64,000 nucleotides of DNA from Verrucomicrobiia bacterium (GCA_963664225.1 OY760937.1:5600001-5664000), one strand, 5' to 3'; positions 29,678 to 46,859 are shown, numbered from the stretch's first letter. The notes: generated by a model not told the origin, from the sequence alone. Made by a program: numbers and translations.

Positions 29678-30334
29678 TCAAGCAGCATGACGGCTTCGCA
29701 GAAGGGTCTCCACAACCCCCCAGGCCTGGGTCTGAACTTGTTCGATGGATTGCGTGGCATCGATGCGTTTGATGCGGGAGGGTTCCTGCAGCGCGATGGC
29801 GTTGTAGCCATTCTCCACCTTGGCAAAGAATTCGCGGCCTGCCTCTTCGAATCGGTCGCGCTCCGCAGGCAAACCGGTCTGCCGGGATTGACGCCGCTGC
29901 TCGCTGATGGCGATCGGCACCATGAAAAGGAGGGTCAAGTCGGGTTGAGTGCTTCCGACGGCAAATTGGGTGATTTGACGGATCGTTTCCAAATCCAAAC
30001 CCCGCCCATAGCCCTGATAAACGGTGGTGCTGTCAAAAAAACGATCGCAAAGTACGGTTGTACCCGCCTCTAAGGCGGGTTGGATGACTTCCCGGACCAA
30101 TTGGGCGCGGCTGGCGCTCATCAGAAGCAGCTCGGTTTCAGGGGTCATGTCCCGGCTTTTTGCGCTGTGCTTCAGAATGTGGCGGAGTTCTTCGCCAATC
30201 GGCGTGCCCCCCGGCTCGCGGAGGAGTTTGACGGGATGACCCAGTGATTGCAACCGGCTGGCCAGGAGGGATATTTGCGTGCTTTTGCCACTGCCCTCCG
30301 TGCCTTCAAAGGTAATGAACACACCCGGATTCAT
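29678..30334 (-). CDS. tmk: Thymidylate kinase
   Basis: FITFEGTEGSGKSTQ, REPGGT, CDRFFDST.YQG. Confidence 0.96.
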   Translation of the reverse strand: MNPGVFITFEGTEGSGKSTQISLLASRLQSLGHPVKLLREPGGTPIGEELRHILKHSAKSRDMTPETELLLMSASRAQLVREVIQPALEAGTTVLCDRFFDSTTVYQGYGRGLDLETIRQITQFAVGSTQPDLTLLFMVPIAISEQRRQSRQTGLPAERDRFEEAGREFFAKVENGYNAIALQEPSRIKRIDATQSIEQVQTQAWGVVETLLRSRHAA

Positions 30335-31320
30335 TGCGCGGGTGGCAGGGGTGGCATATCGGCGTTTGTGGTGGCGGGCGTTTCAAAATTGCCAATGGGA
30401 GGCGGGAGAGTCGGAGCCGGTTGAACAACGACCCGTCTTTGCTTGATGAAATCCGAGGTCAGATAGGCGACGAGGGATTCGATTTGCTCTTGTGATAGGA
30501 CGCCTCCTTCGCTGTAGGCGAATGCTGGCATCAGGGTTCCAGGTTTGCCCCGGGTAATCCAGGAACGCCAATAATCCCGGTCTTTGGTTTTTTCGACCGC
30601 CGCCAAATCCGGCACCATGGTCGCCCGGTGGAGGGATTCATGACAGATGGCGCATGCGGTGCGGAAGAGCGGTTCTCCGCGTTTGCCAGCGGTGGGTTGG
30701 ACATGGCAGCGAACGCAGTCGCCCTTGAAAACGGCCTGGCGATCAGCCATGGAAGTCATCAGGTTGCGCGTGCGCATGTCGGCGACGTTGGTGGTTGGAA
30801 GTTCTGGAATGATGACTGCAAAAGTCAGCATTTTCATTCCAGCGGAGGTATCCACCGACAGATATTTGTTTAAGGTGCCGCGTTTTCCACGGAGATCGAT
30901 GGTTGCCTCGAGTTTGCCTGATTCATTTGGGGCCAGCACCCAGGGCGATTTTGGCAGTTTTGCCACAGTACACCCACAAGATGGCCTGACGGCTTTGATA
31001 ATGACTTCCGCGGACGAAATATTCGTGACGCTGTAAACCACGGTTGCCTCTGTGGCGCCCGATGTGACATCGATCTCTTTTCTCATGGCATCCCATGCCA
31101 ACGGTTCCGGACCGGCTGGTTGTGGATTCAGGGGATCTTTAACCCGGGCCGGTTGAGACGGATTGGAGAAAACCACATGAGGGGTGATGATCGTCACCGG
31201 CGGATTGGTGAGGGGTGACTGGGCCTGCGTAAATATCGGAATGCAAAGAATAACCCAAAGAGCCAGCAACTGCTTTTTGCGTCTATACGGACGCCTTAGC
31301 ACCAAAATGTTCACAAACAT
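30331..31320 (-). CDS. Exported DUF1573 (Ig-like) domain plus diheme cytochrome c
   Basis: Signal-like N-terminus, PSCGCT motif, CVRCH and CAICH heme sites, distal MPAF. Confidence 0.8.
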   Translation of the reverse strand: MFVNILVLRRPYRRKKQLLALWVILCIPIFTQAQSPLTNPPVTIITPHVVFSNPSQPARVKDPLNPQPAGPEPLAWDAMRKEIDVTSGATEATVVYSVTNISSAEVIIKAVRPSCGCTVAKLPKSPWVLAPNESGKLEATIDLRGKRGTLNKYLSVDTSAGMKMLTFAVIIPELPTTNVADMRTRNLMTSMADRQAVFKGDCVRCHVQPTAGKRGEPLFRTACAICHESLHRATMVPDLAAVEKTKDRDYWRSWITRGKPGTLMPAFAYSEGGVLSQEQIESLVAYLTSDFIKQRRVVVQPAPTLPPPIGNFETPATTNADMPPLPPAQ

Positions 31321-31370
31321 AGCCTTAACCGTTTCAATCTGACACCGCATAAGCATTCGGTCCAGTTGTG

Positions 31371-31778
31371 CTAAGTATTTGAAGTGCCAAGCAACCGCGC
31401 CCAAAATGAATGGGATTGGTTTTGACGTTGCTGGACTTTGAGCTGGCCCAATATGGATTGCCAACTGATGAATAGTTTGTGCCATTGGTTTTCCAGACCG
31501 CGTTGGGAGGACTCGGCCATTTCACTGACAAAGCGGATGGATGGGGCGCTGCTGAGCAGGTTGTGCATGTCATCCTTACCGGGCGCGCCGCTTTCAATGG
31601 AGGCCAGGATCAGCTCCAACTCCTGGGCGATGACGCTTTTGACATCCAGAAACTGGGTTTCGTCCTCGGGGGTGAACGTCTTACTCCTGGCCATGTTGAG
31701 GTATTTGTTAAACTGTTTCCAGCACTCCAAAAAATTTTCCACTTGCAGGATAAGCTGGTTGATATTCTTGATGCTCAT
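31371..31778 (-). CDS. Hypothetical helical protein with a C-terminal amphipathic segment
   Basis: Overlaps the upstream gene by 4 nt; helical composition; ends SFWARLLG. Confidence 0.7.
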   Translation of the reverse strand: MSIKNINQLILQVENFLECWKQFNKYLNMARSKTFTPEDETQFLDVKSVIAQELELILASIESGAPGKDDMHNLLSSAPSIRFVSEMAESSQRGLENQWHKLFISWQSILGQLKVQQRQNQSHSFWARLLGTSNT

Positions 31779-32101
31779 ATTTGGGAGTTTTCCTTTAATG
31801 GCTCGGTCTGGACCGGTTGGGATGGGGCCAGAAAGACAATCGCCCCCCCTCGAAGCTCTCTGGCGGTTATTTTCACGGCAGGATAAGTGATTTGAATTTC
31901 GTTAAAAATGAGCTGCGCCTGGTGCGCGCTTTGAAAGGCGACCAAAACAGACTGGCCAATTTGCCTGATCATTTCGGGTGAAAAGGCCTGCGGCAGGGTT
32001 GAGGAAATGAGGCGTCCATCCCGATCAATCGTAAAGCAGCCAACAGGGAATGCCTTGATGGCCTTGTCCAAAGGTTTGGATTTAACGGTCAAGAGGCCCA
32101 T
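31775..32101 (-). CDS. Small protein, probable Roadblock/LC7-like fold
   Basis: GCFTIDRDGRLISSTL - helix - ITARELRGGAIVFL pattern; coupled to neighbours. Confidence 0.6.
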   Translation of the reverse strand: MGLLTVKSKPLDKAIKAFPVGCFTIDRDGRLISSTLPQAFSPEMIRQIGQSVLVAFQSAHQAQLIFNEIQITYPAVKITARELRGGAIVFLAPSQPVQTEPLKENSQI

Positions 32102-33186
32102 TTTGAAGTCAGCTCATTCATGGTTTTCCGGATTTGGGCGGGGGACAGCGACCTCTCGAATCCTATGCACAGGCATGCCGAAGGGGATCCGCTTATGGCG
32201 ACGTGGCGCTGGATTCCCAAGGCCAGAATCTGGGATGGCTGCCCAAGACGCAATTGCGCTCCCAATCTGGAAAAACCATCGAGGGTTTGCCGGGTCCAAA
32301 TGGCCAGAGATTGGGGATTTTCAACAGCCCAGCACTGGGGCGCCTGGCCTGAGGGATCCATGGCCAGCACGAATTCCACACCGGGGTGGCCGCCGATTTC
32401 CTGGACTCTGGAGGATGCAGGCGCGGGCGTGGGTGCGATGGCCGCGGCTTCCAGGGCTTGTTGCGGGGATGGACCAACTTGGTAAGCTGCCAGGTTTTCA
32501 TCCTGGGCCTGGGCTGTTTCCAGCAAAAGGCCCTGATAGGAAACAAAAATGGCGCGCGGATGATTTGGTTCCGCCGGAAGAAGTTCGAAATTACCTGTTC
32601 TCCATGATAAAATCAGATGGAAGGCCGGTTCCCCCGAGAGGTCTTCGGTCATCGCGTCCATGACCTCGCCATTTTGAAACCAAATGCGGCCTTCGCGGAA
32701 GCCATTGTTGATGCGCAGGACGGCTGAACTTTGGGAGAGACATTCCAGTTGAACAATGTCCACAAGGCTTTTGCTTTGCATGCCTCGAAAGCCCGCATGG
32801 GTTTCCTGGCCGAGGAGAGCTTCGATGCAATCCAGAAACAACTGAGTGGCTTGCGTTGTACTGGGTTTCTCCAGATACAGATCCAGTCCCATTGCGTATG
32901 CGCGTGTGCGGAACTGAGGGTCGTTCAGGGAGGTCATCACGGCCGTGCGCATTTGCGGAAACTTCCGGCGAACGATGGATAGGACCTCCAATCCGTGCAT
33001 CTTGGGCATGTTCAAGTCGGACAGGAGGAGGGCGAAGGGTTCAGATTCAAGGAGGGCAATGGCCCGAGCCCCACTATTGGTTGTGCGCACCTCCGGCTGG
33101 CTGGGCAGGCGCGACAGCATTTCCTGGTAGAGTTCGAGCAAGTCCGGATCGTCGTCCACCAAGAGGACTTTAGGGTGCTGGACCAT
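32089..33186 (-). CDS. Response regulator: REC + DUF4388 (PATAN-like) + C-terminal Roadblock-like domain
   Basis: VLLVDDD, SDLNMP, MTS, EKP; GFRGMQSKSLVDIVQLECL...GRIWFQNGEVMDA...WRTGNF. Confidence 0.85.
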   Translation of the reverse strand: MVQHPKVLLVDDDPDLLELYQEMLSRLPSQPEVRTTNSGARAIALLESEPFALLLSDLNMPKMHGLEVLSIVRRKFPQMRTAVMTSLNDPQFRTRAYAMGLDLYLEKPSTTQATQLFLDCIEALLGQETHAGFRGMQSKSLVDIVQLECLSQSSAVLRINNGFREGRIWFQNGEVMDAMTEDLSGEPAFHLILSWRTGNFELLPAEPNHPRAIFVSYQGLLLETAQAQDENLAAYQVGPSPQQALEAAAIAPTPAPASSRVQEIGGHPGVEFVLAMDPSGQAPQCWAVENPQSLAIWTRQTLDGFSRLGAQLRLGQPSQILALGIQRHVAISGSPSACLCIGFERSLSPAQIRKTMNELTSKWAS

Positions 33187-33298
33187 GGCAATCACATTAA
33201 AGACTGCCATCCTTTATATGCACCCGCTTAAAACAATGCAAGCCAGCATAAAATTATCGACGTCCCCGGGCGTTCGTGCCAGAATAAATTCAAAATCG

Positions 33299-35164
33299 AT
33301 GTTTGCCGCTCTTAAAAAGTTTTTTTCAAGAGGTGCGACCACGAGCGAATCGGCGTCGGTGCCGCCTCCTCAGCCGCAGGTTCCATCTCAGCGCTCCACC
33401 ACCATCTCAAGTCGGACCGCGAGTTCGCCAGTCGCACCGCACATGGGTTCGGCTGTATCGGCATCTCCACCGGCCACGCATGAAGCGCCTCCCAGGGTGG
33501 CTTCTCCATCAGCGGGGAACGCCGGTTACAAGTTTGCCCCGGTCCCGTCAGCCTCGCCTGGAACCGGTGTTCCGCGTGCTCCGATTGCACCGATTGCTCC
33601 CGTGTCCACCGGCGCAGGTATGGCGTCCCCTAATCCTCCCGCATCGGGGGGGGAGACGGTCAGCCTGCCATTGTCTGAATTATTGAAGAGTTTTCCTGAA
33701 CTGATCCAGGCCGGGGTCTTGCGCAAGCCTTCCGCTGATACCTTGATATCCCTGCCCCTGTCTCTTGTTTTGCCGCAAGTGTCCACTGGAGCTATAAAGT
33801 TACCGTTTGGACAGTTTCGCGTTGTTTGTCCGGAGGGGACATTCCCTAATTCCAATGCGCTGGACCAAACCATGGTCACACTGCCATTGGCTCTGATATT
33901 GCCGCGGATCAATCCGGCTTTTCTGGCGCGGCGCTCCAGTCAGCGACGCATTGTCGATCCTGAATCGTTTGAATCCGTATTTGCCCGGGGAGGGCAGCCG
34001 GGGAGTTCCCTCGCGCCATCAGCCGCCATCGGGATGCAGGAAAAACCGGTTGAAGCGCCCTTACCGAATGCGCCAGCAACTCAGCCCCATGTCGCCAATC
34101 CGTTCACACCGGTCGCAGCCTCGGATCCGGCCCCCATACCGATGTCCACCCATCTGCCGTTTGCCAAGGCAGCGCCGCTTCCCAATGCTCCGATAACACC
34201 GTTGCGCGCGTCAGCACCATCTGTTCAGGCTGTGCGTTTGCCTGGCACGCTGCCGACGCCTTCAGAGCAGGCGAAGCTGGCGGAAAGCCTCTGGATCCCA
34301 TTGCACCTTCTGTCTGCGCACTTACCATCAAATGTGCAAATATTATTGGCGGATAATGCGTTTGCCACCAGCAATGTCGGTATTCCGGTGTCCGAATTGG
34401 AAGCGGGACTCAAGCAAGGGAGACTGGTTTTTACATGGAATCAATTGCGAAATTGGATTGAACCCACCCCTCCGGCAGGGGGAGTGGCGGAGGATTCGCT
34501 GGTGCCATTACCGTTACAGTTCATTGTCCCTCTGTTTTTGGCGAAACGCAGCGCAGGCAAGGAAGGTTCCCATAAGAAGGTTGTCCTGGATCAGAATATT
34601 CCCGATGTTTTTGGCTCGGTGGCCACGGATAAAAGAGCCGCCACGGATGTCCCTGCGTCGCCTGCAGCCAGCGAATTGCCGATTGTTGAGACGCCATCCC
34701 AAATTCCACAAGCTCCGGCACGGGCCGCTGTTGCCTTGAAAGAAGAAGTCCCAGCCAAAGCTGCGGGGATGGAGAATTTGGGGGCGATTTTTGGACAACC
34801 GGACAAGGCAACCTGGACACCGTTGGAAATTGTTCGCAATACAGCAAGGCTGCCAGGGATGGTGGGATCCCTTATTTCGCTTCAGGATGGCTTATTGGTA
34901 TCAGGACAGGTGCCGGGTGGCATCAATGCGGAGACGGTTGCCGCTTTTATCCCGCAGGTATTCGGGCGCATGGCTCATTATACCAGGGAACTGAAATTTG
35001 GCGAACCTTCGTATGTCGGGCTTGTGGTTTCGGAATATTCGCTTCACATCTTTAAAACGGGGAGCGTTTATTTTATGGCGATGGGGCGTGCAGGGGAACA
35101 GCCGCCATTGAAGCAACTGAATGAAATTGCGTTGCAAATAGAACGACAATCCAAAACCAATTAA
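33299..35164 (+). CDS. Pro/Ala/Ser-rich protein with two repeated domains and a C-terminal Roadblock/LC7 domain
   Basis: C-terminus LPGMVGSLISLQDGLLVSG...AAFIPQVF...LHIFKTGSVYFMAMG. Likely start MFAALKKFF at 33299. Confidence 0.8.
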   Translation: MFAALKKFFSRGATTSESASVPPPQPQVPSQRSTTISSRTASSPVAPHMGSAVSASPPATHEAPPRVASPSAGNAGYKFAPVPSASPGTGVPRAPIAPIAPVSTGAGMASPNPPASGGETVSLPLSELLKSFPELIQAGVLRKPSADTLISLPLSLVLPQVSTGAIKLPFGQFRVVCPEGTFPNSNALDQTMVTLPLALILPRINPAFLARRSSQRRIVDPESFESVFARGGQPGSSLAPSAAIGMQEKPVEAPLPNAPATQPHVANPFTPVAASDPAPIPMSTHLPFAKAAPLPNAPITPLRASAPSVQAVRLPGTLPTPSEQAKLAESLWIPLHLLSAHLPSNVQILLADNAFATSNVGIPVSELEAGLKQGRLVFTWNQLRNWIEPTPPAGGVAEDSLVPLPLQFIVPLFLAKRSAGKEGSHKKVVLDQNIPDVFGSVATDKRAATDVPASPAASELPIVETPSQIPQAPARAAVALKEEVPAKAAGMENLGAIFGQPDKATWTPLEIVRNTARLPGMVGSLISLQDGLLVSGQVPGGINAETVAAFIPQVFGRMAHYTRELKFGEPSYVGLVVSEYSLHIFKTGSVYFMAMGRAGEQPPLKQLNEIALQIERQSKTN

Positions 35165-35169
35165 GGCAT

Positions 35170-35784
35170 ATGGCGATCATTAATCAGGCCACAAAAGAGC
35201 TGCAGGTCAAAATTGTTTATTACGGTCCGGCGTTATGCGGCAAGACGACCAATTTGCAGCAGGTGCACGGGCAGGTGCAGACCGCGCCGGAGAACAAAGG
35301 CAAACTGGTCTCGCTGGCCACCAGTTCGGACCGGACCTTGTTTTTCGATTTTCTCCCGATTGAATCGTTGTCCATCAAAGGTTTCAAAACGAAGTTCCAG
35401 CTTTATACCGTGCCGGGCCAGGTGATTTACAATACCACCCGGCAACTCGTGCTGCGCGGAGTGGATGGGATTGTGTTCGTGGCGGATTCACAATACGAGA
35501 AGATGGCGGAAAACGTGGAGAGTTTTTCCAATATGGAGGAAAATCTCAGATCCTTGAAAATGAATCTGGCCGAAATTCCATACGTGCTGCAATTCAACAA
35601 ACGGGATTTGCCCAATGCGGCTCCAATCGATTACATGGAGTTTCTATTGAACAACCGCGACATTCAAGTGCCCTCGTTTAGCGCTTGCGCCCACAAGTGC
35701 GAAGGTGTGTTTGAAACGTTGAATATGATCAGCCGTCTCTTGTTGCAGAAATATTTGACGGAAACTTCCCGTAAAATCGCCTGA
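35170..35784 (+). CDS. mglA: MglA-family small GTPase
   Basis: KIVYYGPALCGKTTNL, DRTLFFDF, LYTVPGQV, GVDGIVFVADS, NKRD. Confidence 0.95.
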   Translation: MAIINQATKELQVKIVYYGPALCGKTTNLQQVHGQVQTAPENKGKLVSLATSSDRTLFFDFLPIESLSIKGFKTKFQLYTVPGQVIYNTTRQLVLRGVDGIVFVADSQYEKMAENVESFSNMEENLRSLKMNLAEIPYVLQFNKRDLPNAAPIDYMEFLLNNRDIQVPSFSACAHKCEGVFETLNMISRLLLQKYLTETSRKIA

Positions 35785-35785
35785 T

Positions 35786-36265
35786 ATGTTTACACTGCCC
35801 CGTTTGATTCAGGAGGACATGGACCGGATGGAGGCCGCGTTGGACGAATTAATCGCCCGCAGCGAAGCTTCCAACGCCGCCATTCTTGACAAGGGCGGTT
35901 TTATTGTGGCGTCCCGAGGGGCGTTGGAATCCTACGACCTGACGACGCTGGCCGCGCTGGCCGCCGCTTCGTTTACGGCCAATCAAGCGATTGCCAATCT
36001 GATTCACGAGACCAATTTTTCCAGCGTTTATCAGCAGGGGGAGAGCTTCAGCATGCTCGTCAACAACGTGGATGAGCAGTGTCTGTTGGTGGTTATTTTT
36101 AAGGCGCAATTAAGCGTGGGCGCCGTCAAATATTACGCCCGGGACACCATCCTAAGGGTGATTGACCAAATGGAAAAAGCCCGCAAACGGACGCCGGAAG
36201 AGGGCGTTGACCTGGCCATGCTGAATGTGAGCGATACGTCCCAGGTGTTTCGCAAGAAAGACTGA
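35786..36265 (+). CDS. mglB: MglB-family Roadblock/LC7 GTPase-activating protein
   Basis: ILDKGG, DLTTLAALAAASF.A..AIA.LI.E..F...YQQGE, LLVVIF....SVGAVK. Confidence 0.88.
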   Translation: MFTLPRLIQEDMDRMEAALDELIARSEASNAAILDKGGFIVASRGALESYDLTTLAALAAASFTANQAIANLIHETNFSSVYQQGESFSMLVNNVDEQCLLVVIFKAQLSVGAVKYYARDTILRVIDQMEKARKRTPEEGVDLAMLNVSDTSQVFRKKD

Positions 36266-36345
36266 GTTTTCCCGATAATATGCACGGGATTAGCCCGTGT
36301 ATAGCAGACTTGCCAAAGGTTGATCCGATTTGGTTAAATCCCCGC

Positions 36346-37701
36346 GTGTTGAATCAACAAACGCTTCGTGAGCCAGTGAGCTTTGCCGGCATTGGCCTGC
36401 ATAGCGGGAATGGGGTCGAAATGACCTTGCTGCCCGCCGCGCCGAACACCGGCATCCGTTTTCGCCGCGTGGATCTGGACGGCAAGCCGGAAATTGAGGC
36501 GCGGATTGAAAACGTGAGTGACACCACGCGCTCGACCACTTTATCCAAAGGCAATGTCAAAATCCATACCGTGGAGCATGTTCTTGCGGCCTTGGCGGGA
36601 TTCGAAATCGACAATGCCATTGTGGAACTCAACGCAAACGAGCCTCCCATCGCGGATGGCAGCGCGAGGGAGTATTGCAAGTTGATCCAGTCCTCGGGCA
36701 TTCAGGCGCAGTTGGATGCGCGGGATGTGTTCAAAATTGAGGCCCCCATTGAAATTACACTGGGGGACACCGTCATGTCGGCGTTCCCTTATGACCGCTT
36801 GAAGGTTTCCTGCGTGAGCGTCGATAAACGGGGCCAGCACACCCAGCATTTCAGCGTGGAGGTCAATCCAGAGACCTGGCTAAAGGAAATATCCGCGGCG
36901 CGGACTTTTTGTTTTTATGAAGAGATCGAGCTGCTGATCAAGAACGGTTTGATCAAGGGAGGCAGCCTTGAAAATGCGGTCGTGATCCGGGATGATGCGA
37001 TCCTGACAACCGAGCCGCTCCGATATCCAGAGGAATTTGTTCGGCACAAAATATTGGATATCTTGGGCGACCTTTCGCTCCTTGGCCGACCGATTCGCGG
37101 ACACATCATGGCCGTCAAGCCAAGTCATGCGGCCAATTGCGAACTCGTGCGTCAGATTGCCGCGCAGATGCGAAAGCCGTTGGTGGCCGCGCAGTCTTTT
37201 GCCCCACCGCCCGCAGCGCCATCCGTTTCGGACAAGCCCAAGACCGAGGATGAATTGGTTGTTCGTGACGGCTCGCGCTTCGATATTCTGCAGTTGCTTA
37301 AAATTTTGCCACATCGTTACCCGTTCGTCATGGTGGACCGGGTCATCAAGGTGGAAGGAAACAAGATTACGGCCATCAAGAACGTGAGCATGAACGAGCC
37401 GTATTTTCAGGGACACTTTCCAAATCATCCCATCATGCCCGGGGTCCTGCAACTGGAGGCCATGGCCCAAGTGGCGGGCATTCTGATGCTTCGACAGGCG
37501 GAGAATCTGGGCAAGCTCGCCTATTTCATGGCGGCCGAAAACGTCAAATGGCGCAAGCCTGTGCGTCCGGGCGATCAATTGGTCATTGAGATCGAACTGA
37601 CGAAGATTCGCGGCAAAATTGGCAAGGCCAGCGGGGCTTGCAAGGTCGATGGCGAAGTGGTCAGCGAGGCTGAAGTGACTTTTATGCTGGGCGATGCCTG
37701 A
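36346..37701 (+). CDS. lpxC/fabZ: Bifunctional LpxC/FabZ fusion
   Basis: GIGLHSG, TVEHVLAAL, ARTF, RHKILD..GD, then LPHRYPF, FQGHFP..PIMPGVL.LEAMAQ. Confidence 0.95.
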   Translation: MLNQQTLREPVSFAGIGLHSGNGVEMTLLPAAPNTGIRFRRVDLDGKPEIEARIENVSDTTRSTTLSKGNVKIHTVEHVLAALAGFEIDNAIVELNANEPPIADGSAREYCKLIQSSGIQAQLDARDVFKIEAPIEITLGDTVMSAFPYDRLKVSCVSVDKRGQHTQHFSVEVNPETWLKEISAARTFCFYEEIELLIKNGLIKGGSLENAVVIRDDAILTTEPLRYPEEFVRHKILDILGDLSLLGRPIRGHIMAVKPSHAANCELVRQIAAQMRKPLVAAQSFAPPPAAPSVSDKPKTEDELVVRDGSRFDILQLLKILPHRYPFVMVDRVIKVEGNKITAIKNVSMNEPYFQGHFPNHPIMPGVLQLEAMAQVAGILMLRQAENLGKLAYFMAAENVKWRKPVRPGDQLVIEIELTKIRGKIGKASGACKVDGEVVSEAEVTFMLGDA

Positions 37702-39392: not shown

Positions 39393-42300
39393 ATGAAACC
39401 GAAAACTCAACGGTATGCGGGGAAGATTGAAGCAACTTCGGCCATTTTATTTCATGCTCCTTACGCCGGTCATGCATGCAGATTGATTTGTTGCATATTA
39501 TTCGTTCTGGGGCTGCTTTTGCCGGGGCGTTCCCTGGCTCAAACTCTCATCAACGTCGATTTTGGTGTCGGCAAGTCGAGTCCCAAGACTGGCTGGGCTG
39601 CCACCGGACAAAGCAGCAATGATTTTTGGAATCTTTATCGCCACTATGACCCGAAGTTTTCCCCGGGCATGCCCCTGGTGACCAACGGACTTCTTGCCGA
39701 GGTCAAATTTTCAGACGGCTCCGCTTCACCCGTGTCCATTGCCGTTTCCAACGCGCCGGGAGTCTGGGGAAACACCACCGGGGACGCCATGCTTGATTCG
39801 TATCTGTTTTCGATGAACGGGAGCAATATCACGGCGACGATCAGCAACCTACCCGCAGGCCGATACCATTTTTATCTGTATGGGCACGCGGATGCGGACG
39901 TTACAGGAGAACAGAACAGTCTGTTTACGATCGAAAGCGGAACAAACCGGTTTGGACCCTTGACTTCCGAATTGGGAACCAGGAAGGCGTCGATCAACGA
40001 GCCTGGAGTCTCCATCCATGCCGGAGAATCGCGGGAAAGTTATCCATTCGCTCTGTTTCGAGATGTGCAAGTTTTCGAAGGAATTCCAGTGAACCTGGTG
40101 GTATCCGCAGGTCCCAATGGCGTGCCAGTGCTCAATGGAATGCAGATCGCCTCCCGCGGAACCAGTCCTCCTGGATTACTCGCGGCCGGACCCTTGCTTC
40201 CCGTTGACACCGCAACGAATCTGTTGTTTCGCGAGGTGCGTTACGAGGGAACGGTCACTGACGATGAGGCGCGGTTTCATGTGAACCTGACCGTGGAGTC
40301 CCGGAGCACCAATGAGATTACCGGGATGCTGTTTGAAGGAGATGTCGCAATTCTCGATGCAAAGATGCCTGAGAAATTACGGCTGATGGCTCAACCCAAG
40401 GGCGCCTTGATAGTGGCCAGCGCGCCGGGAGTTTATGAAGTGTCGTTCGATGCCGTGGTCAAAATCCAGCGTGCCGAGCCTTGGAACCAAATCACCTTGA
40501 TCGGTCCGCCCGCTGCCATTGCCTCGGTGAATGCGCGGGCCGCCGGAGCGGATGTGGAGATGCAGCTTCTAAGCGGAACTCTCGTTGATTTGCAGAAGGC
40601 GGACAAAGCATCGGAAGTTCATGGTTTGATCGGGCCGGATCGCATCCTTTTTTTACGGTGGCAAAGCAAGGCCGCGGAGGTTCAACGCAGGTCGTTTGTC
40701 ACGGTCGATACGTTGGCGGGTATTCAAATCACACCCACGGTAGTCCGGTTCAACACCCTCTTTAAATATGACATTCTTCAGGCGACCATCGCCCGTCTTG
40801 TCATTTCGCTTCCCACAAACCAATCCTTGATTCGGCTTCAGGGCGAGCAAATTCGCGACTGGCGCGTGACACCGGACAACGACGCTTCCTTGTTGACGGT
40901 TGAATTCCTCAAGCCGATTGAAAAAACCTATCAACTGACACTGTTAAGCGAGCAAACGGTCGAGTCCACATCCGCTGCCCAGGCTCTGGGAGTGCCGCGT
41001 CCGCAGAAAGTCGAGCGGGAGTCAGGATCGATCAATCTCGCGGTCGATGACACTGTTGCGGAGGTTCAAAGGGCGGAAGGCTTGCGGCAGGTCAACACTC
41101 CGGCAGGCGCAGTGGCTTCGTATCGTTTCAATGCGCGCCCCTTCGCTTTAAGCGCACGCATCCGGCGCATCGAACCGATGATCGAAATTTCCGACCGGGT
41201 GACGGCGCGTTTGGAGGAAAGTCGTTTTCTTGTCGATCATTCCATGAATCTGCAAGTCACAAAGGCTGGCGTGTATTCCATCGAGTTGTCTCCACAAACC
41301 GGTTTTGCAGTCGCAAATGTTACCGGGGAGGGTGTCGATGATTGGAAACTGATCGACGGAAAATTACGCGTCAATTTCACAAGTCGAGTTCTTGGAACGC
41401 GTCCGCTGCGAATTCAATTGGAACAGGCGCTGAAGGAATTTCCCGCGCGGGTGGTGGTCGATCCGCTTCGGCTGACCGGTGCAGCGACTGAAACGGCGGA
41501 AATAGGGGCGGGTGCATTATTCGGATTGCGTGTGAAAACGGCGGAATTGGCGGGCCTGCGCGAAATACCGATCGACCGCCTCAGCCAGCGAACGGATGAA
41601 CTGCTGGCTTATCAATCGGATCAGGCGGCCTGGAGGTTGACGCTTGCAACTGAAAAACTCGCCCCAAGGGTGGTTGCCGACATCTTCAACCTGGTGACGG
41701 TGGGCGACGGTCTGGTGGGCGGCAGCGCCACGATGCGCTTTGGCATCATCAATCAAGGCGTGCGGGAGTTTCATATCAAAGTGCCGTCGCATTGGAAGAA
41801 TGTCGATTTCACCGGGCCAGGGATCCGGCGCAAGGAGCAAACCACCAACGATTGGATCATTGGCCTGCAGGATAAGGCGTGGGGCGGTTATACACTGGTC
41901 ATTACCTATGATTTTCCATTCGATCCCAAAGGTGCGGCATTGGCCGTGGGCGGTGTTCACGCTGCGGATGTGGAGCGGGAAACCGGGAGCATCGCACTGA
42001 CCAGTTCCTCGGGGTTGCGGCTGGACGCGAGGCCCGTTTCGGAGCCGTTACGGCGCATCGACGAGATGGAACTGGCCGCCGAGGATCGCGCATTGATCAT
42101 GCGCCCCGTGATGCTGGCCTACCAATACACCGGCGTGGCCTACGATCTGACCCTGGATGTGGCGCGCTATGAACCTGCGCGCATGCTGGAGGCGGTCGCG
42201 GATCGCACTCAATTGACCACGGTAGTCACCGAGGCGGGCCAGATGCTTACGCAGGCCTCCTTCATGGTTAAAAATAATGAGAAACAATTTCAGCGGTTCC

Positions 42301-45300
42301 GGCTTCCCGAGGGCGCGCAATTCTGGTCCAGTTTTGTCAATGACAACGCGGTGAAGGCCGAACGCGATGGGGACTGGGTGCTGGTGCCCTTGCCTCGCCA
42401 GGATAACCGCGATGCAACCTTCGCCGTGGATCTGGTGTACGCGCAAAAAATGGGTGCGTCGGGAGCCATGCGAGGGAAGACGGTTTCGCTGGAAGCTCCG
42501 CGCACCGATATTCCGAACACCTACGCTGAATGGCAGGTTTACGCGCCCAAGTCACGCCGATTGAGCGGATTTGGAGGCACGATGACCATTGCGCAAGGAA
42601 CAGTTTACGGATGGCATGAGGCTTGGAACCAGTTTTTTGCATTCTATGCAAGGATGGAGAAAGAAATGGCTTTTGAAGCGCTCTTTTTTGGCGGCCTGTT
42701 TTTGCTGTTGTTTGTGATGATCGTTGCATTCAAGCGACGCGGTTTCAGGGGCCTTGCAAGCGGATTGGCGGTCTTCGCCTTGATGCTCTTATTAGGCGCC
42801 ATGTTACTTCCGGCACTTTCCAAGTCCAAATCCAGAGCATCAAGCGCGTCCCTCACTGCCATTGGAGGCAGGAATGCAGGCAGGACGGATGTCAACGGTC
42901 CGGCGCCTGCGGTCGATACACTGAGTTTGGAAGATAGCAAAAGTGCCGGGGACAGAAGTGACTTGAGTGTGGAGCTAAAAAAGAAGGCGGATGGTCAAAC
43001 CGGTTCTCAAAGGATTCCAGAACGACCGGCAATCGTGCCTGCGACCCCAGTGCCGAGTCAGGTTCCTGCTGCGGCACCAGTGGCGTCCGAAACGCTACAG
43101 CACGGTATTGGATTGGTGAACACGGACAAGGAAACTGCGGGGTTATTTGGGGGAGGCGGAGGTATCGGTGGATTCGCCGGTCGCGCGATGGTTCCGATGG
43201 GGAAAGTGGTGGAGAGCGGAATCAACCCGATACGCATCGATATTCCACGCGAAGGCCGGTCCTATTTGTTTACCAAGGTTCTCAATGTGGGTGGCGAGCC
43301 CCTTACAGTGCGGGCGCGTGACATGGATGCCACCGGATACCTGGTTGCGCGTGGAATACTTGAGACCATTGCTTTTCTAGCGGGACTCACTTTGGTGTGG
43401 ATGCAATGGCGGAAGCCGTTTCGCAATGCGTTTTGGCTCACAGTGGGAGTGGTGCTTTCATTTGGAGCAGTGGCGCATTTGTTGATTGCATGGAGAGTTT
43501 TGCATCTGGGTTTGATCGTTTTTGCGCCGTTGATTGTGCTGTTCATTCTGGTTTGGATCGTGTGCAGAATTCCAGGACGCAAAACTGTTTCAGCCGGGAA
43601 TGCGGTTCCTCCCATGCTCGCACTGTTGGCGATGCTGGTTTGGCCACTGGGCGCTTCGGCGCAAACAACCGGGGCTGCAGGGACCAATGCGGTTTCGATC
43701 ACCTCGGCCATTTACAAAGGAGAGGTGAGGGGACAGGTGGCCGCTTTCGATGTGGCTCTCCGTGTGCAAACCTTCCGCACCAACGCACTCGTGCGTTTGT
43801 TTGGCCCGGAGGTCGCGGTGCAACAGTTCTCCTCGGACACCCCATCGGTGCAATTGGTGCGGGACGGGACATCGGTCTGCGCGGATTTGGGCACGGCGAG
43901 CTCGGCCGGATTAACCCTGAAAATCATGGTTAAAATTGGTGGCGAGGTGACACAACGGCAGCTTGCGTTTGGAATTCCCCAGTCCCTTTACAGCCAGTTC
44001 GTGTTGGATATCGACGAACCTGATGTCGAGGTCGATGTTCCCACAGCCGTTTCCGTCAGGCACGCCACCATTGAAGCAAAGACTCATATCGAGGCGATTA
44101 TCGGCCCCGGAGCCGGAGTGGATTTGCGGTGGACGCCACGGGTCAAACGGGCTGCCGAAATTGCCGCCACGATTTTTTGCGAGAACACGTCCCTGGTTAC
44201 ACTTGGGAACAGCGTGGTGGGCGTGCGCTCTGTGCTGGATTACCAAATCACACAGGGGGAATTGCGTCGGGCCTCGGTTCGATTGCCAGCCGGCCAGCGA
44301 CTGGTGCGCGTCGAAGGCGAGATGGTTCGCACCTGGGAACAGCGTGATGAAGGGGACGCTTCGATCGCCGTTGTGGAATTGCTGAAGGGCGTTTCCGCGA
44401 ATTGGCGCCTTACCCTGGAGACTGAAAAGCCTTTGGATCCATTGCCAACGGTTGTGAAAGTGCTCGTGCCGCACGCAATGGAGGTTCAGCGCGAGACGGG
44501 TGTGGTGGGGCTGGCGGGCGCCGAAGAACTGGGGCTTAACATCGAAGCCCCATCGCTTCAACGCGTGGATGGCGCTGAATTTGGGAAAATTGTCGGGCGC
44601 AAGGTGGAGGGTTTGTCGGGCGCATTCCGATTCCTAAAACCCGATTTCAACTTGTCCGTGGGCGTCGAGGTGATCCGGCCTGAGATTGAGGCGGTCGTGC
44701 ATAATCGTGTCACGGTGGGATCCGACCAGACCGTGCTGGCGGCCCAGGTGGATTACCAGATTAAAAAGGCAGGGGTGTTTTCCCTGAGGCTTTTGTTGCC
44801 GAAAGATTATCGTGTGGAAAAAATTGCTGGCAGCAAAGGGGCAATCAATGGGCGCGTGCTGCCGGGAACGGATATTTACGAGGCCAATCTCGGTGAGCGT
44901 GTTCTGGGCGCCTGCACGATACGCATGACGCTGACCAAGTCCGGGAATGAGCCGCCCAAGCATGTCAATATTGTGGGGGTGCATCCATTGGATACGGCGA
45001 AACTGGCTGGATTTGTATCTGTTTCCTCGGAATTGGGTCTTGTCTTGAAAACCGAGGAGTTCGAGGGACTGTCGGAGATTCCCGCGACAGGTCTGCCGGG
45101 GTTGCTACAGGAACCTCAAGAACCGGGCGGCAGGAGCATTGAACCGGCACCAGAGGCATTAAGTGGGAGCACGCTGGCTTTCAAGCGCATCGCCACCCAG
45201 CCTGGAGATGTGCCGGATTGGAAATTGGTCGTCACGGCGGAACAAGTGGAGCCTTGGATTCGGGCCGAGATCGTCAACACCTACAACATCACCGACACAC

Positions 45301-46859
45301 TGGTGAATGGTCGCGCCATTGCCCGTTTTGAAATAGCCAATGCTCCCATCCGGGAGCTGAAGTTGAATATTCCAAAAGCCTTTAAGAACGTGGAGATCAC
45401 GGGGGCAAACATTCGCCGCCGGGATCAGGATGGCGAACAGTGGCGGGTGGAGTTGCAGGGCAAAACGCGTGGAATCTATTTGCTGACCGTCACATGGGAA
45501 CAGCCGCGTTCAAGCCAGACCAACGCGTTGGAACTTGAAGGAGTCTCTGCCACGGGAGTGGAGCGTGAAACGGGGATGTTTGCGATTGTGGCGCGTCCGC
45601 CATTGCAGGTTTTGCCCCAAACCATGGGGGACATGCTCAAAGCTGACCCGCGCGAATTGCCTGAATGGGCGGGTCGTCCAGATACAGCCACTGTTTTGGC
45701 ATTTCGATATTTGCGATCCGGAGCGAAACTTTTGGTGGATGTAAAACGATTCGAAGAAGTGTCGGTATTGCAGGCCCTCGTTGATAATGGACGCTTTACG
45801 ACCGTCGTCGCCGAGGACGGCCAGACCATGACGGAAATGGTCCTGGCATTGCGAAATAATGGACGCCAGCATTTGGAACTGGAGTTGCCGAATGGGGCGC
45901 AAGTCTGGTCGGCATTTGTCGGTGGCCAGCCAGCCCAGCCCAGCCGACGGGATGGCCGGATACTCCTGCCGGTGGAGCGGAGCGCCGCTGGAAGCCGGGC
46001 CACGATTTCAGTGGAATTAATTTATGTGAACACAAACAAATTCCCTGGATTGCGGGGATCGCTGGAACTCGTTTCTCCAAAGTTCGATGTTCCCTTGAAG
46101 AACATTCGCTGGGAATTGTATTTACCTCCCAATTACACCTATTCGGAATTTGGCGGGAGCATGAATATCATTGTACCGGAGGTGGTGTTCGCAAGATCCC
46201 TTTCCTCTGTTGATTCCCGGTATTCCATTGATGAATACAAACGGCAGGAAACGCAGAAACAGGAAGTCATCCAATCTGAAGTGCAGTTCAACTTGCATAG
46301 TGCCCAGGAGAAACTTGCGGAAGGTAACATCAAGGAGGCCGTGGAAAATTATCGCCAGATAAGATCCGGGAAACAAGGATCGGTTGCTGCCGAACCTGGA
46401 ATCAAGCAGTTGGAGAAGGATTTGCGCCGGGTTCAAAGCAGCAATTTGCTGGCGCGTCAGAACACCTTCAGCGCGGCCAATGGTGTGGTGATGGATGCCC
46501 AGGTGGATCAAAGAGGGCAGAATGCCAGTGCCACAAGAAACTCGATGCTCTTTTATAATGATTCCACGGTGGCTGAGCAGCAATGGAGCAAACTGCAGCA
46601 GGCGCAGGAGGTCACGGTGGCGCAAATCCAACCGTTGCGGGTCAATCTGCCGATTCGCGGGGCGCACTACGAGTTTTCGCAGGTTCTTCAGACGGAAACC
46701 GGAAAGCCCATGACGATTCACCTCCTGGCGGCAAAGTCAGGGGCCGGAGGCGTCGTTGGAAAAGTCATCCTTATAACGGGTGGATTTCTCTTCCTGTGGC
46801 TGTTGCTGAAGCTGCTCTTCGGAACGTCCAAACGGCGTGTCCCGGCCGCGCAGGCATAA
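39393..46859 (+). CDS. Giant (2488 aa) internally duplicated membrane-anchored protein of unknown function
   Basis: Single long ORF with signal peptide (RSLA-Q), LINVDFG beta domain, two homologous halves, central TM bundle and C-terminal TM. Confidence 0.85.
   Translation: [2488 protein letters not shown]

Follow-up and report, generated by a model that had tools for sequence, protein, structure and literature searches.

Among bacterial examples of Ras-like spatial control, MglA-type switches are understood best, and nearly all mechanistic work on them has been done in Myxococcus. In the polarity module of Myxococcus xanthus, which comprises MglA, MglB, MglC, RomR, RomX and RomY, a complex of RomR, MglC and MglB is reported (PMC10329633), and RomX is described as a three-helix bundle that bridges RomR-REC and MglA-GTP (10.1101/2024.02.20.581209). 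The roles of RomR/RomX and of MglC are, by the account in PMC13408092, still debated. The actinobacterial conservon (CvnA-D) is described as a conserved cassette that brings together an input of the kinase type, a Roadblock protein, an unknown protein and a GTPase of the MglA family (PMC4316618).

A second line of work concerns the PATAN domain, which is reported as an output domain that binds PilB1 and PilC in Synechocystis; cyanobacterial PatA-type regulators are defined in the same source by an N-terminal PATAN followed by a C-terminal REC domain (10.1101/2021.06.11.447907). MglA/MglB genes are stated to lie 'occasionally' near PATAN-domain genes in diverse phyla (Wuichet and Sogaard-Andersen 2014, PMC4316618; Makarova et al. 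2006 as cited there). A general MglA/MglB-PATAN link is already published in what these sources report (PMC4316618, 10.1101/2021.06.11.447907). Here we describe a divergent locus in a genome of Verrucomicrobiota that combines these elements in a fixed form.

Layout and conservation of the cassette

All six open reading frames claimed by the earlier note are present in the window, that is, the whole stretch of 64,000 nucleotides that was analysed, and they form a single divergent locus of 4.9 kb. The minus-strand operon encodes a REC-DUF4388 regulator (373 amino acids, 32089-33210 as the longest ORF), the 108-residue protein r108 (31775..32101) and, as its last gene, the 135-residue protein h135 (31371..31778). 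The plus-strand operon encodes the Pro-rich protein P659 (ORF 33185-35164), the Ras-like small GTPase MglA (35170..35784) and the Roadblock/LC7 protein MglB (35786..36265). Ortholog alignment places the likely start of the regulator at 33186 rather than at the longest-ORF start 33210. The likely start of P659 is at 33299, where an alignment of 12 orthologs shows a conserved MFGFLKKLF-type N-terminus, giving a protein of 621 amino acids (33299..35164). With these starts the divergent intergenic region between the operons is 112 bp long (33187..33298), in agreement with the spacing of about 110 bp proposed before. A scan of this region for promoter-like elements found 4 with 3.1 expected, which is not above chance.

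Co-conservation of the two operons, on which the proposal had been staked beforehand, is what we observe. Within 8 kb on either side of mglA, all six genes are found in the same divergent order in 17 of 20 loci. When loci are anchored on h135, the trio of regulator, r108 and h135 is present in 77/80, and all six genes are present in 37 of the 45 loci that extend 6.5 kb or more upstream; one more lacks only a hit to P659. Since the six-gene arrangement recurs in both sets of related loci, it is not due to chance. The cassette is kept across one order of Verrucomicrobiota (Limisphaerales/Pedosphaera-type). Of the envelope genes said to flank it, an LpxC-FabZ fusion stands downstream (NF009667, 518 bits, cut-off 465), but the flanking envelope genes are not conserved, and outside the same-genus locus the local neighbours do not recur. 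The 5.78-Mb genome has just two Pfam Robl_LC7 matches, one DUF4388 match, which is the regulator, and one MglA match with the window MglA as query (one candidate at E<=1e-20). All of these lie inside the cassette, which from its gene content appears to be a self-contained small-GTPase switch.

The two operons might nevertheless be functionally separate, with MglA, MglB and P659 as one system and the receiver-PATAN trio as an unrelated two-component output that is a long-standing neighbour. The trio does occur without mglA within about 9 kb in 7 of the 45 loci, 9 of the 43 genomes that have both mglA and the trio (detected by h135) have them on different contigs, and neither r108 nor the regulator tail resembles MglB at the sequence level. 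We consider this separation very unlikely. Across 61 same-order genomes, MglA and h135 are both found in 43, neither is found in 12, h135 alone is found in 5 and MglA alone in 1; these genomes are related and not independent samples, so that the counts overstate the case, and the 6 discordant ones are mostly fragmented assemblies. The divergent pair is also conserved where the surrounding genes are not. Furthermore, the trio would supply Roadblock-fold proteins, and the known bacterial partners of this fold are MglA-type GTPases. Neighbourhoods of MglA/MglB and PATAN genes are reported to recur in other phyla (PMC4316618).

The GTPase, the Roadblock domains and h135

Members of the MglA family have as hallmarks a P-loop GxxxxGKT, a switch-I Arg-Thr, a TxxGQ motif in which Thr replaces the usual Asp, and NKxD. 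This threonine is stated to be a feature of the family in PMC3000849. The motifs named in the earlier note are all found in the window MglA, in which the P-loop GPALCGKT, the switch-I DRT of DRTLFFDF, TVPGQ and NKRD align with M. xanthus MglA. The alignment with the solved M. xanthus protein runs residue for residue over 193 residues (1-193, E 1.2e-65), and T. thermophilus MglA is matched at E 7.2e-60. Among 16 orthologs the GTPase is 79-89% identical, with a mean column identity of 88%. As judged by sequence, the MglA of this locus is canonical and close to the Myxococcus type.

The earlier note counted up to four Roadblock domains in the cassette. Three of them are firm (MglB, the P659 C-terminus and r108), and the fourth, the regulator tail, is probable only. 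MglB is firmly recognised by the Pfam Robl_LC7 model (1.4e-7, 31.6 bits, cut-off 23) and matches MglB in the PDB at 1.1e-13. The Thermus-type NCBIfam MglB model NF052242 scores it at 5.4e-23 and 81.8 bits, under the cut-off of 200, and by this model the window MglB is a relative and not an equivalog. It has a conserved C-terminal extension, and the C-terminal residues D142, L143, N147 and F155 are invariant. By analogy, MglB is the presumed GAP of MglA.

P659 begins with a short motif of basic-hydrophobic character. Pro-rich linkers and a domain of about 100 amino acids that occurs twice (33644-33964 and 34271-34570) follow, and the protein ends in a Roadblock domain (about 34757-35161). By hhalign the two copies are homologous to each other (probability 97.7%, E 2.2e-12, 93 columns), and no convincing match to them was found in Pfam or the PDB. 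The Roadblock domain that had been claimed for this protein is firmly supported by profile comparison. A C-terminal profile of 18 orthologs matches the PDB Roadblock chains 7f8f (2.7e-8), 7f8m (3.6e-7) and 7yh1 (1.3e-5). A search for related proteins gives 107 at E<=1e-3, and among the matches listed several have PF03259 or a Roadblock/LC7/MglB name. As a single sequence, the C-terminus scores 0.019 and 15.1 bits with Pfam Robl_LC7, under the cut-off of 23.

In the case of r108, it is the predicted structure that identifies the fold. The protein has no Pfam hit at E<=0.1 and so no PF03259 match by sequence; hhalign against the local MglB profile gives a probability of 14%, out of register, and there is no significant profile similarity to MglB or to the regulator tail. 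Its AF2 model (pLDDT 83.6) has the element order b-b-a-b-b-b, which is the alpha-beta-beta-alpha-beta-beta-beta sandwich save for the missing helix alpha1. In VIA-align the top structural matches are Roadblock/LC7 chains with Z 11.7, 9.9 and 9.8, including LC7 9y6s (Z 11.7, rmsd 3.3, 81 aligned) and Odinarchaeota Roadblock 7f8f (Z 9.8). MglB 6hjm follows at Z 7.9, and the chains of Roadblock, LC7, LAMTOR and MglB proteins span Z values of 11.7 to 7.6. Foldseek returns Roadblock 7yh1 at E 5e-5 with probability 1.00 and 17 matches at E<=1e-3; every match listed down to that level is a Roadblock, LC7 or LAMTOR chain. The Roadblock fold claimed for the 108-residue protein is thus borne out by its model, and we firmly assign r108, as modelled, to minimal Roadblock/LC7-fold proteins.

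The regulator has the domain order REC (residues 15-120; 32851..33186 from the likely start codon on), PATAN/DUF4388 (148-238, 32497..32769) and tail (262-373, 32092..32427). Its receiver is matched by Pfam Response_reg at 4.3e-21, and the structural matches of the regulator model to solved receiver domains reach a Z of about 20. The acidic pair, acceptor Asp, Thr/Ser and Lys are all kept: D19, D20, D65 and K115-P116 are invariant in 15 orthologs and T93 is nearly invariant. With its acceptor residues intact, the receiver is predicted to be phosphorylatable. The PATAN domain is matched by DUF4388 (PF14332) at 1.1e-14 and 54.9 bits (cut-off 25). None of the 15 regulator tails has a Pfam hit, and the tail has no significant profile similarity to MglB or to r108. 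Its AF2 secondary structure is a-b-b-a-b-b-b-a, with a block pLDDT of mostly 78-87. A tail profile of 83 sequences has Roadblock 7f8f as its sole PDB hit at E<=1, at a borderline E of 0.0093 with 82 residues in register. A fold search with the full regulator model was filled by receiver domains, and protein-atlas feature scores of 0.86-0.88 to Robl_LC7 clusters are leads only. Model and profile together suggest that the tail is probably a Roadblock-like domain.

In 64/66 distinct loci the regulator gene and r108 overlap by 13 nt, the ATG of r108 preceding the regulator stop, and in the window the r108 stop overlaps the h135 start as ATGA. From this arrangement r108 reads as translationally coupled to the regulator gene. 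The exactness of the overlap fits a 1:1 co-synthesis of regulator and r108, although it is suggestive only. It raises the question whether the two Roadblock-like parts pair with each other, or whether r108 and the tail are each homodimeric, as MglB and MglC are, and the overlap reflects mere operon compactness. The second possibility is one we would keep in mind without expecting it. The fold matches of r108 include solved homodimers, for example entries titled Roadblock2 and Roadblock3 homodimer, and the r108 and tail profiles are unlike each other. But besides the constant overlap, the closest fold matches of r108 also include Roadblock heterodimers, namely MP1-p14 and further Ragulator pairs.

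The remaining protein, h135, is an uncharacterised family and nearly order-specific. It has no hit in Pfam or NCBIfam, and its profile finds nothing in the PDB at E<0.1, with no chain, the solved RomX entry included, below E 0.18. A profile search gives 5382 proteins at E<=1e-3 among 5766 candidates. Among the best 120 relatives all named ones are 'hypothetical', and they belong to Verrucomicrobiota or Limisphaerales except for one Candidatus Sulfotelmatobacter. The gene is found in 48/61 same-order genomes and in 1/70 other genomes of the phylum, where the sole h135-like gene has no mglA within 9 kb on either side. Across 17 orthologs the mean column identity is 68%, and 24 residues, C19 and H100 among them, are invariant. 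Its sequence pattern suggests that h135 is probably helical.

Proposed mechanism, input and output

On balance we think it probable that the locus is an MglA switch cassette with MglB as GAP, P659 as scaffold, a phospho-gated platform of regulator and r108, h135 as adaptor and type IV pili as output. MglB would act on MglA as a GAP, as in Myxococcus and Thermus. P659, tethered to the membrane or to a site, would offer its Roadblock domain to either MglB or MglA. Made 1:1, the regulator tail and r108 would pair into a further Roadblock platform, this one a heterodimer, which would correspond in fused form to the RomR/MglC arm in Myxococcus. An unlinked histidine kinase would phosphorylate D65 of the receiver and so change the contacts of this platform and of the PATAN domain with MglB, MglA and the output machine, which would set the place and time of permitted MglA-GTP. 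The adaptor h135 may be RomX-like and act between the receiver and MglA-GTP.

A more specific version of this proposal can be offered only tentatively. Here the receiver-PATAN protein and the co-translated r108 would form a heterodimeric Roadblock platform whose affinity for MglA/MglB is switched by phosphorylation, and h135 as adaptor and the duplicated P659 domain as site-tethering scaffold would be new MglA-pathway families. If this is true, the cycle of a Ras-like GTPase would receive a two-component signal directly, with no chemosensory system involved.

We infer the output by analogy. The placement or activity of type IV pili seems likeliest, from MglA elsewhere and from the binding of PATAN to PilB1 and PilC in Synechocystis, and four genes of the PilT family score above the curated cut-off in this genome. 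The conserved neighbours of the cassette include no pilus, kinase or chemotaxis genes, and the CheA dimerisation domain was not found in the genome. PilT is present in 61/61 relatives, and since 12 of these do not have the cassette, pili are independent of it. The spread of PilT and the absence of pilus genes from the conserved neighbours also suit the same MglA switch with another output. This could be the placement of division or growth sites, as for PatA in Anabaena, or an envelope machine of the proton-driven TolQR/ExbBD type, as for the Agl motor in Myxococcus gliding. PatA is reported at division sites, where it interacts with the divisome (10.1101/2021.06.11.447907). A TonB-like-ExbB-ExbD operon lies directly downstream of h135 in 16 of the 59 loci with room. 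In a genome with a more distant MglA (G018), a related operon is divergent beside a P659-like-mglA pair, with a C-terminal domain 29% identical (E 1e-19). We nonetheless regard a non-pilus output as rather unlikely. ExbBD-type operons are common, the adjacency is seen in only about a quarter of the loci and may be explained by sub-clade synteny, and in the genome of the window the TonB-like ortholog (4.00 Mb) is distant from the cassette (5.63 Mb). The known outputs of MglA and PATAN, as far as they are reviewed in 10.1101/2021.06.11.447907, are mostly pilus-related. Type IV pili remain our preferred output.

Comparison with known systems

The Myxococcus polarity module is similar to the cassette in several respects. 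Both have an MglA with the same switch motifs and a Roadblock MglB, the response regulator and extra Roadblock-fold proteins of the cassette parallel the RomR/MglC/MglB complex, and the small, probably helical h135, encoded with the receiver protein, recalls RomX, although no similarity between the two proteins is detectable. There are also differences. The Myxococcus regulators are scattered over the genome, whereas all parts of the cassette are in one locus. In the cassette the receiver shares one protein with PATAN and a Roadblock-like tail, where RomR has a linker and a helical C-terminus, and the extra Roadblock protein r108 is without helix alpha1, unlike the Myxococcus module. No Frz-type CheA was found in the genome of the cassette, and the gene order is mglA then mglB, whereas in Myxococcus mglB precedes mglA. 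We know of no counterpart in the Myxococcus module of a long Pro-rich scaffold with a duplicated domain such as P659.

In a lineage of common soil and freshwater Verrucomicrobia, a single MglA, a single PATAN protein and every Roadblock-fold protein, as predicted here, are encoded in one locus, and the six proteins would be a minimal, closed parts list for reconstitution. The natural receiver/Roadblock-like fusion could reveal how phosphorylation reaches the GTPase cycle. Both h135 and the duplicated P659 domain are uncharacterised families and candidate new regulators.

The cyanobacterial PatA-type (PATAN-REC) regulators PixG, PixE and LsiR share the PATAN/DUF4388 and receiver domains with the cassette regulator. 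We do not class it as PatA-type, because its order is reversed, REC then PATAN. It also has the tail as a third domain, and unlike the cyanobacterial proteins it is encoded with MglA/MglB and without a surrounding chemosensory operon. The predicted fold of r108 matches the Ragulator/LAMTOR and MP1-p14 heterodimers (Z about 8, Foldseek E 1.5e-4 to 9e-4), which are eukaryotic paired Roadblock platforms for small GTPases and to which a pairing of r108 with the tail would be comparable, but there is no sequence relationship (9-16% identity in structural alignments). The conservon likewise combines a Roadblock protein with a GTPase of the MglA family, whereas the cassette described here has no kinase, a Myxococcus-type MglA and different accessory proteins. 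In the literature searched we did not find its six-gene set, fusion, r108, h135 or P659, although supplementary table S2 of PMC4316618 may list such loci. What goes beyond the generic published MglA/MglB-PATAN neighbourhood is a fixed set of six genes, the fusion of REC, PATAN and a Roadblock-like tail, r108, the h135 family and the P659 scaffold.

A compact divergent mglA cassette

The six genes at 31371-36265 form a compact, conserved cassette with a putative regulatory role around MglA; support for it as a unit is good, and three of its components are uncharacterised. All six open reading frames named in the earlier note are present. The minus operon encodes a 135-aa protein (h135, 31371-31778), a 108-aa protein (r108, 31775-32101) and a 373-aa regulator (longest ORF 32089-33210), and the plus operon a Pro-rich protein that we call P659 (longest ORF 33185-35164), MglA (35170-35784) and MglB (35786-36265). 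Ortholog alignment places the likely start of the regulator at 33186 and that of P659, which has a conserved N-terminus of the MFGFLKKLF type, at 33299. These starts leave a divergent spacer of 112 bp, in agreement with the gap of about 110 bp noted before. The packing is tight: the P659 gene and mglA are 5 nt apart, mglA and mglB 1 nt, r108 and h135 overlap by ATGA, and the regulator stop and r108 start overlap by 13 nt. Promoter and terminator scans gave counts no higher than shuffled expectation. The window's genome is a single contig of 5.78 Mb, and its two Robl_LC7 Pfam matches, its one DUF4388 match and its one match to the window MglA all lie inside the cassette.

Among 61 genomes of the same order, 44 have a match to the window MglA and 48 have h135 by profile. 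Both are found in 43 and neither in 12, while h135 occurs without MglA in five, mostly fragmented assemblies, and MglA without h135 in one; these are counts only, from genomes that are related and not independent. For 20 of the 44 MglA-positive genomes we examined the 8 kb on either side of mglA, and 17 show all six genes in the identical divergent arrangement. In G005 and G060 the minus operon is absent near mglA and h135 is found on another contig. Starting from h135 instead, a scan in which each species is represented by a single genome gives 432 loci with relatives. The titles of the best 80 records mostly name Verrucomicrobiota, Limisphaerales, Pedosphaera or subdivision 3, with roughly twelve under other names, and 77 of the 80 have the trio of regulator, r108 and h135. 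Where at least 6.5 kb of upstream sequence is available (45 loci), all six genes are found in 37, only a P659 match is missing in one, and the trio stands alone in seven. The two operons, which the earlier note proposed as one module, are co-conserved. In the rest of the phylum h135 was found in one of 70 genomes (G064). The 9 kb on each side of that h135-like gene contain no mglA, and its only recognisable neighbour is histidyl-tRNA synthetase.

The genome with MglA and no h135 (G018) has a variant locus (L052:5930-9194), in which a P659-like protein, whose C-terminus is of the Roadblock type, accompanies a more distant MglA of 58-59% identity. The next gene is a 176-aa ORF without a Pfam match, and we find no match to the window's MglB in G018.

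We rejected a tie between the cassette and the flanking envelope genes lpxC-fabZ that the earlier note mentioned. The local flanks recur only in a genome of the same genus, and therefore we do not consider these neighbours part of the unit. The gene at 36280-37701 (plus strand) encodes an LpxC-FabZ fusion of 473 aa (NF009667, 518 bits, above the NCBIfam cut-off), and bifunctional fusions of this kind are a known type. On the other side, the minus-strand frame at 30331-31485 combines a DUF1573 Ig-like domain with a cytochrome c domain of the cbb3 type at its C-terminus. Taken at full length, this ORF would run into the end of h135, and translation therefore probably begins at a more downstream start. 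Further along, the plus-strand ORF at 39393-46859 (2488 aa) has halves that look alike by eye, with VERETG-like motifs in each; hydrophobic segments lie midway along it and at its end.

Roadblock candidates and the regulator

The MglA sequence is not divergent, judging by its alignment to solved MglA from M. xanthus (E 1.2e-65, residues 1-193) and Thermus (E 7.2e-60), in which the P-loop, DRT, TVPGQ and NKRD motifs are aligned. The earlier note counted up to four Roadblock domains in the cassette. Three of these hold, for MglB by Pfam and solved MglB, for the P659 C-terminus by profile and for r108 by predicted fold, and the fourth, in the regulator, is only probable. The identity of MglB is firm at the sequence level, with Robl_LC7 over the Pfam cut-off and a match to solved MglB at E 1.1e-13. 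As a single sequence the P659 C-terminus reaches only 15.1 bits against Robl_LC7, below threshold, and an 18-sequence profile of its last 135 residues finds Roadblock structures in the PDB (E 2.7e-8, 3.6e-7 and 1.3e-5). Despite these matches, it has no significant match to the local MglB profile.

For r108 there is no match in Pfam or NCBIfam, and the evidence comes from structure. The model built from r108 and 17 orthologs is confident (pLDDT 83.6) and has the order b-b-a-b-b-b; compared with the canonical Roadblock fold, the first helix is missing. The top ranks of a structural search are Roadblock/LC7 proteins (9y6s, Z 11.7; 7kzm, Z 9.9; 7f8f, Z 9.8), followed by Ragulator, MP1-p14, Mon1-Ccz1 and MglB chains (6hjm, Z 7.9; 3t1r, Z 7.6), and Foldseek returns 7yh1 at E 5e-5 and 17 matches at E<=1e-3. 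Profile-profile comparison pairs r108 with MglB at a probability of 14% and out of register, with the P659 C-terminus at E 0.073, and with the regulator at nothing significant.

The regulator consists of a receiver (Response_reg, 4.3e-21), a PATAN domain (DUF4388, 1.1e-14) and a tail of residues 262-373, in that order. This is the reverse of the PATAN-REC order described for the PatA type (10.1101/2021.06.11.447907). The receiver matches solved receivers at Z of about 20 in a fold search with the whole regulator model; D19, D20, D65 and K115 are kept in 15/15 orthologs and T93 in nearly all, and from these residues the receiver looks phosphorylatable. The tail is probably Roadblock-like. It is modelled within the whole regulator as a-b-b-a-b-b-b-a, and its 83-sequence profile has one PDB match only, to the Roadblock protein 7f8f from Odinarchaeota, at E 0.0093 with 82 residues aligned in register. 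Matches between the tail and the P659 C-terminus are in register and weak (E 0.0043 and 0.016). Searching 15 tails against Pfam gave at most scattered single-member matches and no Roadblock match, and the 50 best rows of the whole-regulator fold search all begin in the receiver, none being the tail alone. Neither the full regulator nor the 83-sequence tail profile has a significant match to MglB. Profile comparisons of r108 and the tail with the local MglB are not significant, and both would be distant Roadblock members at best.

In 64 of 66 distinct loci the stretch from the first base of the r108 ATG to the last base of the regulator stop codon measures exactly 13 nt. The overlap letters encode the conserved C-terminal W-A/V-S of the regulator and, in the other frame, the conserved M-G-F/L-L of r108, and this sharing explains why the disordered N-terminus of r108 is oddly conserved. 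The overlap is compatible with synthesis of regulator and r108 in equal amounts. Roadblock domains act as dimers, and together with equal synthesis this leads us to infer that the tail and r108 could pair as a heterodimer. They may instead each form homodimers. Complex prediction with the tail, r108 and h135, using MglA as partner, gave a score of 0.01 (mark 0.32), which counts neither for nor against binding.

The h135 family and the P659 internal domain

Across 17 orthologs h135 averages 68% column identity and has 24 residues that never vary, which makes it the most conserved accessory protein. Its family is large and unnamed, with 5382 of 5766 scored candidates reaching E<=1e-3. It has no match in Pfam or NCBIfam and no relative in the PDB (best E 0.18), and a protein-atlas search gives only unnamed Verrucomicrobiota clusters. 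We read h135 as helical, from long stretches free of Pro and Gly that break at three Pro-containing turns. Its invariant residues include a single cysteine (C19, in an ECWKQ motif) and a histidine (H100, in QWH), and a metal or redox site is conceivable. The h135 domain can apparently be repeated inside one protein: one open frame of 403 aa holds three tandem copies (G038:C2:126533-127654) and another of 273 aa holds two (G040:C9:63829-64566), both about 3 kb from mglA.

P659 contains two internal regions of about 100 aa that are mutually homologous (hhalign probability 97.7%, E 2.2e-12). A single-sequence search with this region finds five proteins only. The domain profile finds 107, and a number of those listed are annotated as Roadblock proteins, by Pfam or in the source record. 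Against the PDB the profile gives nothing below E 1, and 22 copies searched against Pfam give only scattered single-member matches, none convincing.

Possible output and known systems

The earlier note saw no kinase or motility genes adjacent to the six. Among the conserved neighbours we find no genes for pili, kinases or chemotaxis, and no CheA dimerisation domain was found in the window's genome. In PatA-type regulators of Synechocystis, the PATAN domain serves as output and has the pilus motor PilB1 and PilC as binding partners (10.1101/2021.06.11.447907). By analogy, and on weak evidence, type IV pili would be the most likely target. Four PilT-family genes are present in the window's genome and PilT is found in 61/61 relatives, with or without the cassette, so presence or absence gives no signal. 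PilT copies average 4.8 in the 43 cassette genomes and 2.75 in the 12 without, seven of which have two PilT-family genes only; genome size and relatedness confound this comparison.

At 16 of 59 loci with room (within L055-L128), an operon of TonB-like, ExbB and ~140-aa genes lies convergent to h135, 0.4-3 kb downstream. The TonB-like protein (about 361 aa) has a predicted membrane anchor, a Pro/Lys-rich linker and a conserved C-terminus; the ~140-aa gene is in the ExbD position, which Pfam confirms only in the G018 locus (L052). There a related operon (L052:3335-5662; 29% identity over 146 aa, E 1e-19) stands divergent beside the P659-like-mglA pair. The adjacency may hint at a proton-driven envelope machine as output. 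It may instead be inherited synteny, and in the window's genome the TonB-like ortholog lies at 4.00 Mb, not beside the cassette.

A 2006 study by Makarova reportedly noted MglA/MglB genes neighbouring PATAN genes. Such neighbourhoods have already been described in broad outline (PMC4316618; 10.1101/2021.06.11.447907). Our search of the main texts of the literature found no description of this Verrucomicrobial cassette, nor of a REC-PATAN-Roadblock fusion, h135 or the duplicated P659 domain.

In Myxococcus, the response regulator RomR is described as joining two Roadblock proteins, MglC and MglB, in a complex through which GAP activity is set at one of the poles (PMC10329633). RomX is described as a three-helix bundle linking the RomR receiver to MglA-GTP (10.1101/2024.02.20.581209). 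The likeness to these Myxococcus and Synechocystis parts leads us to suggest that phosphorylation of the receiver could gate how the Roadblock platforms and PATAN engage MglB, MglA and a target machine. Compared with them, the cassette looks condensed: one chain joins receiver, PATAN and Roadblock-like domain, r108 would be a mini-Roadblock made along with it, h135 a small and conserved partner, and P659 a scaffold that ends in a further Roadblock domain, next to MglA and MglB.
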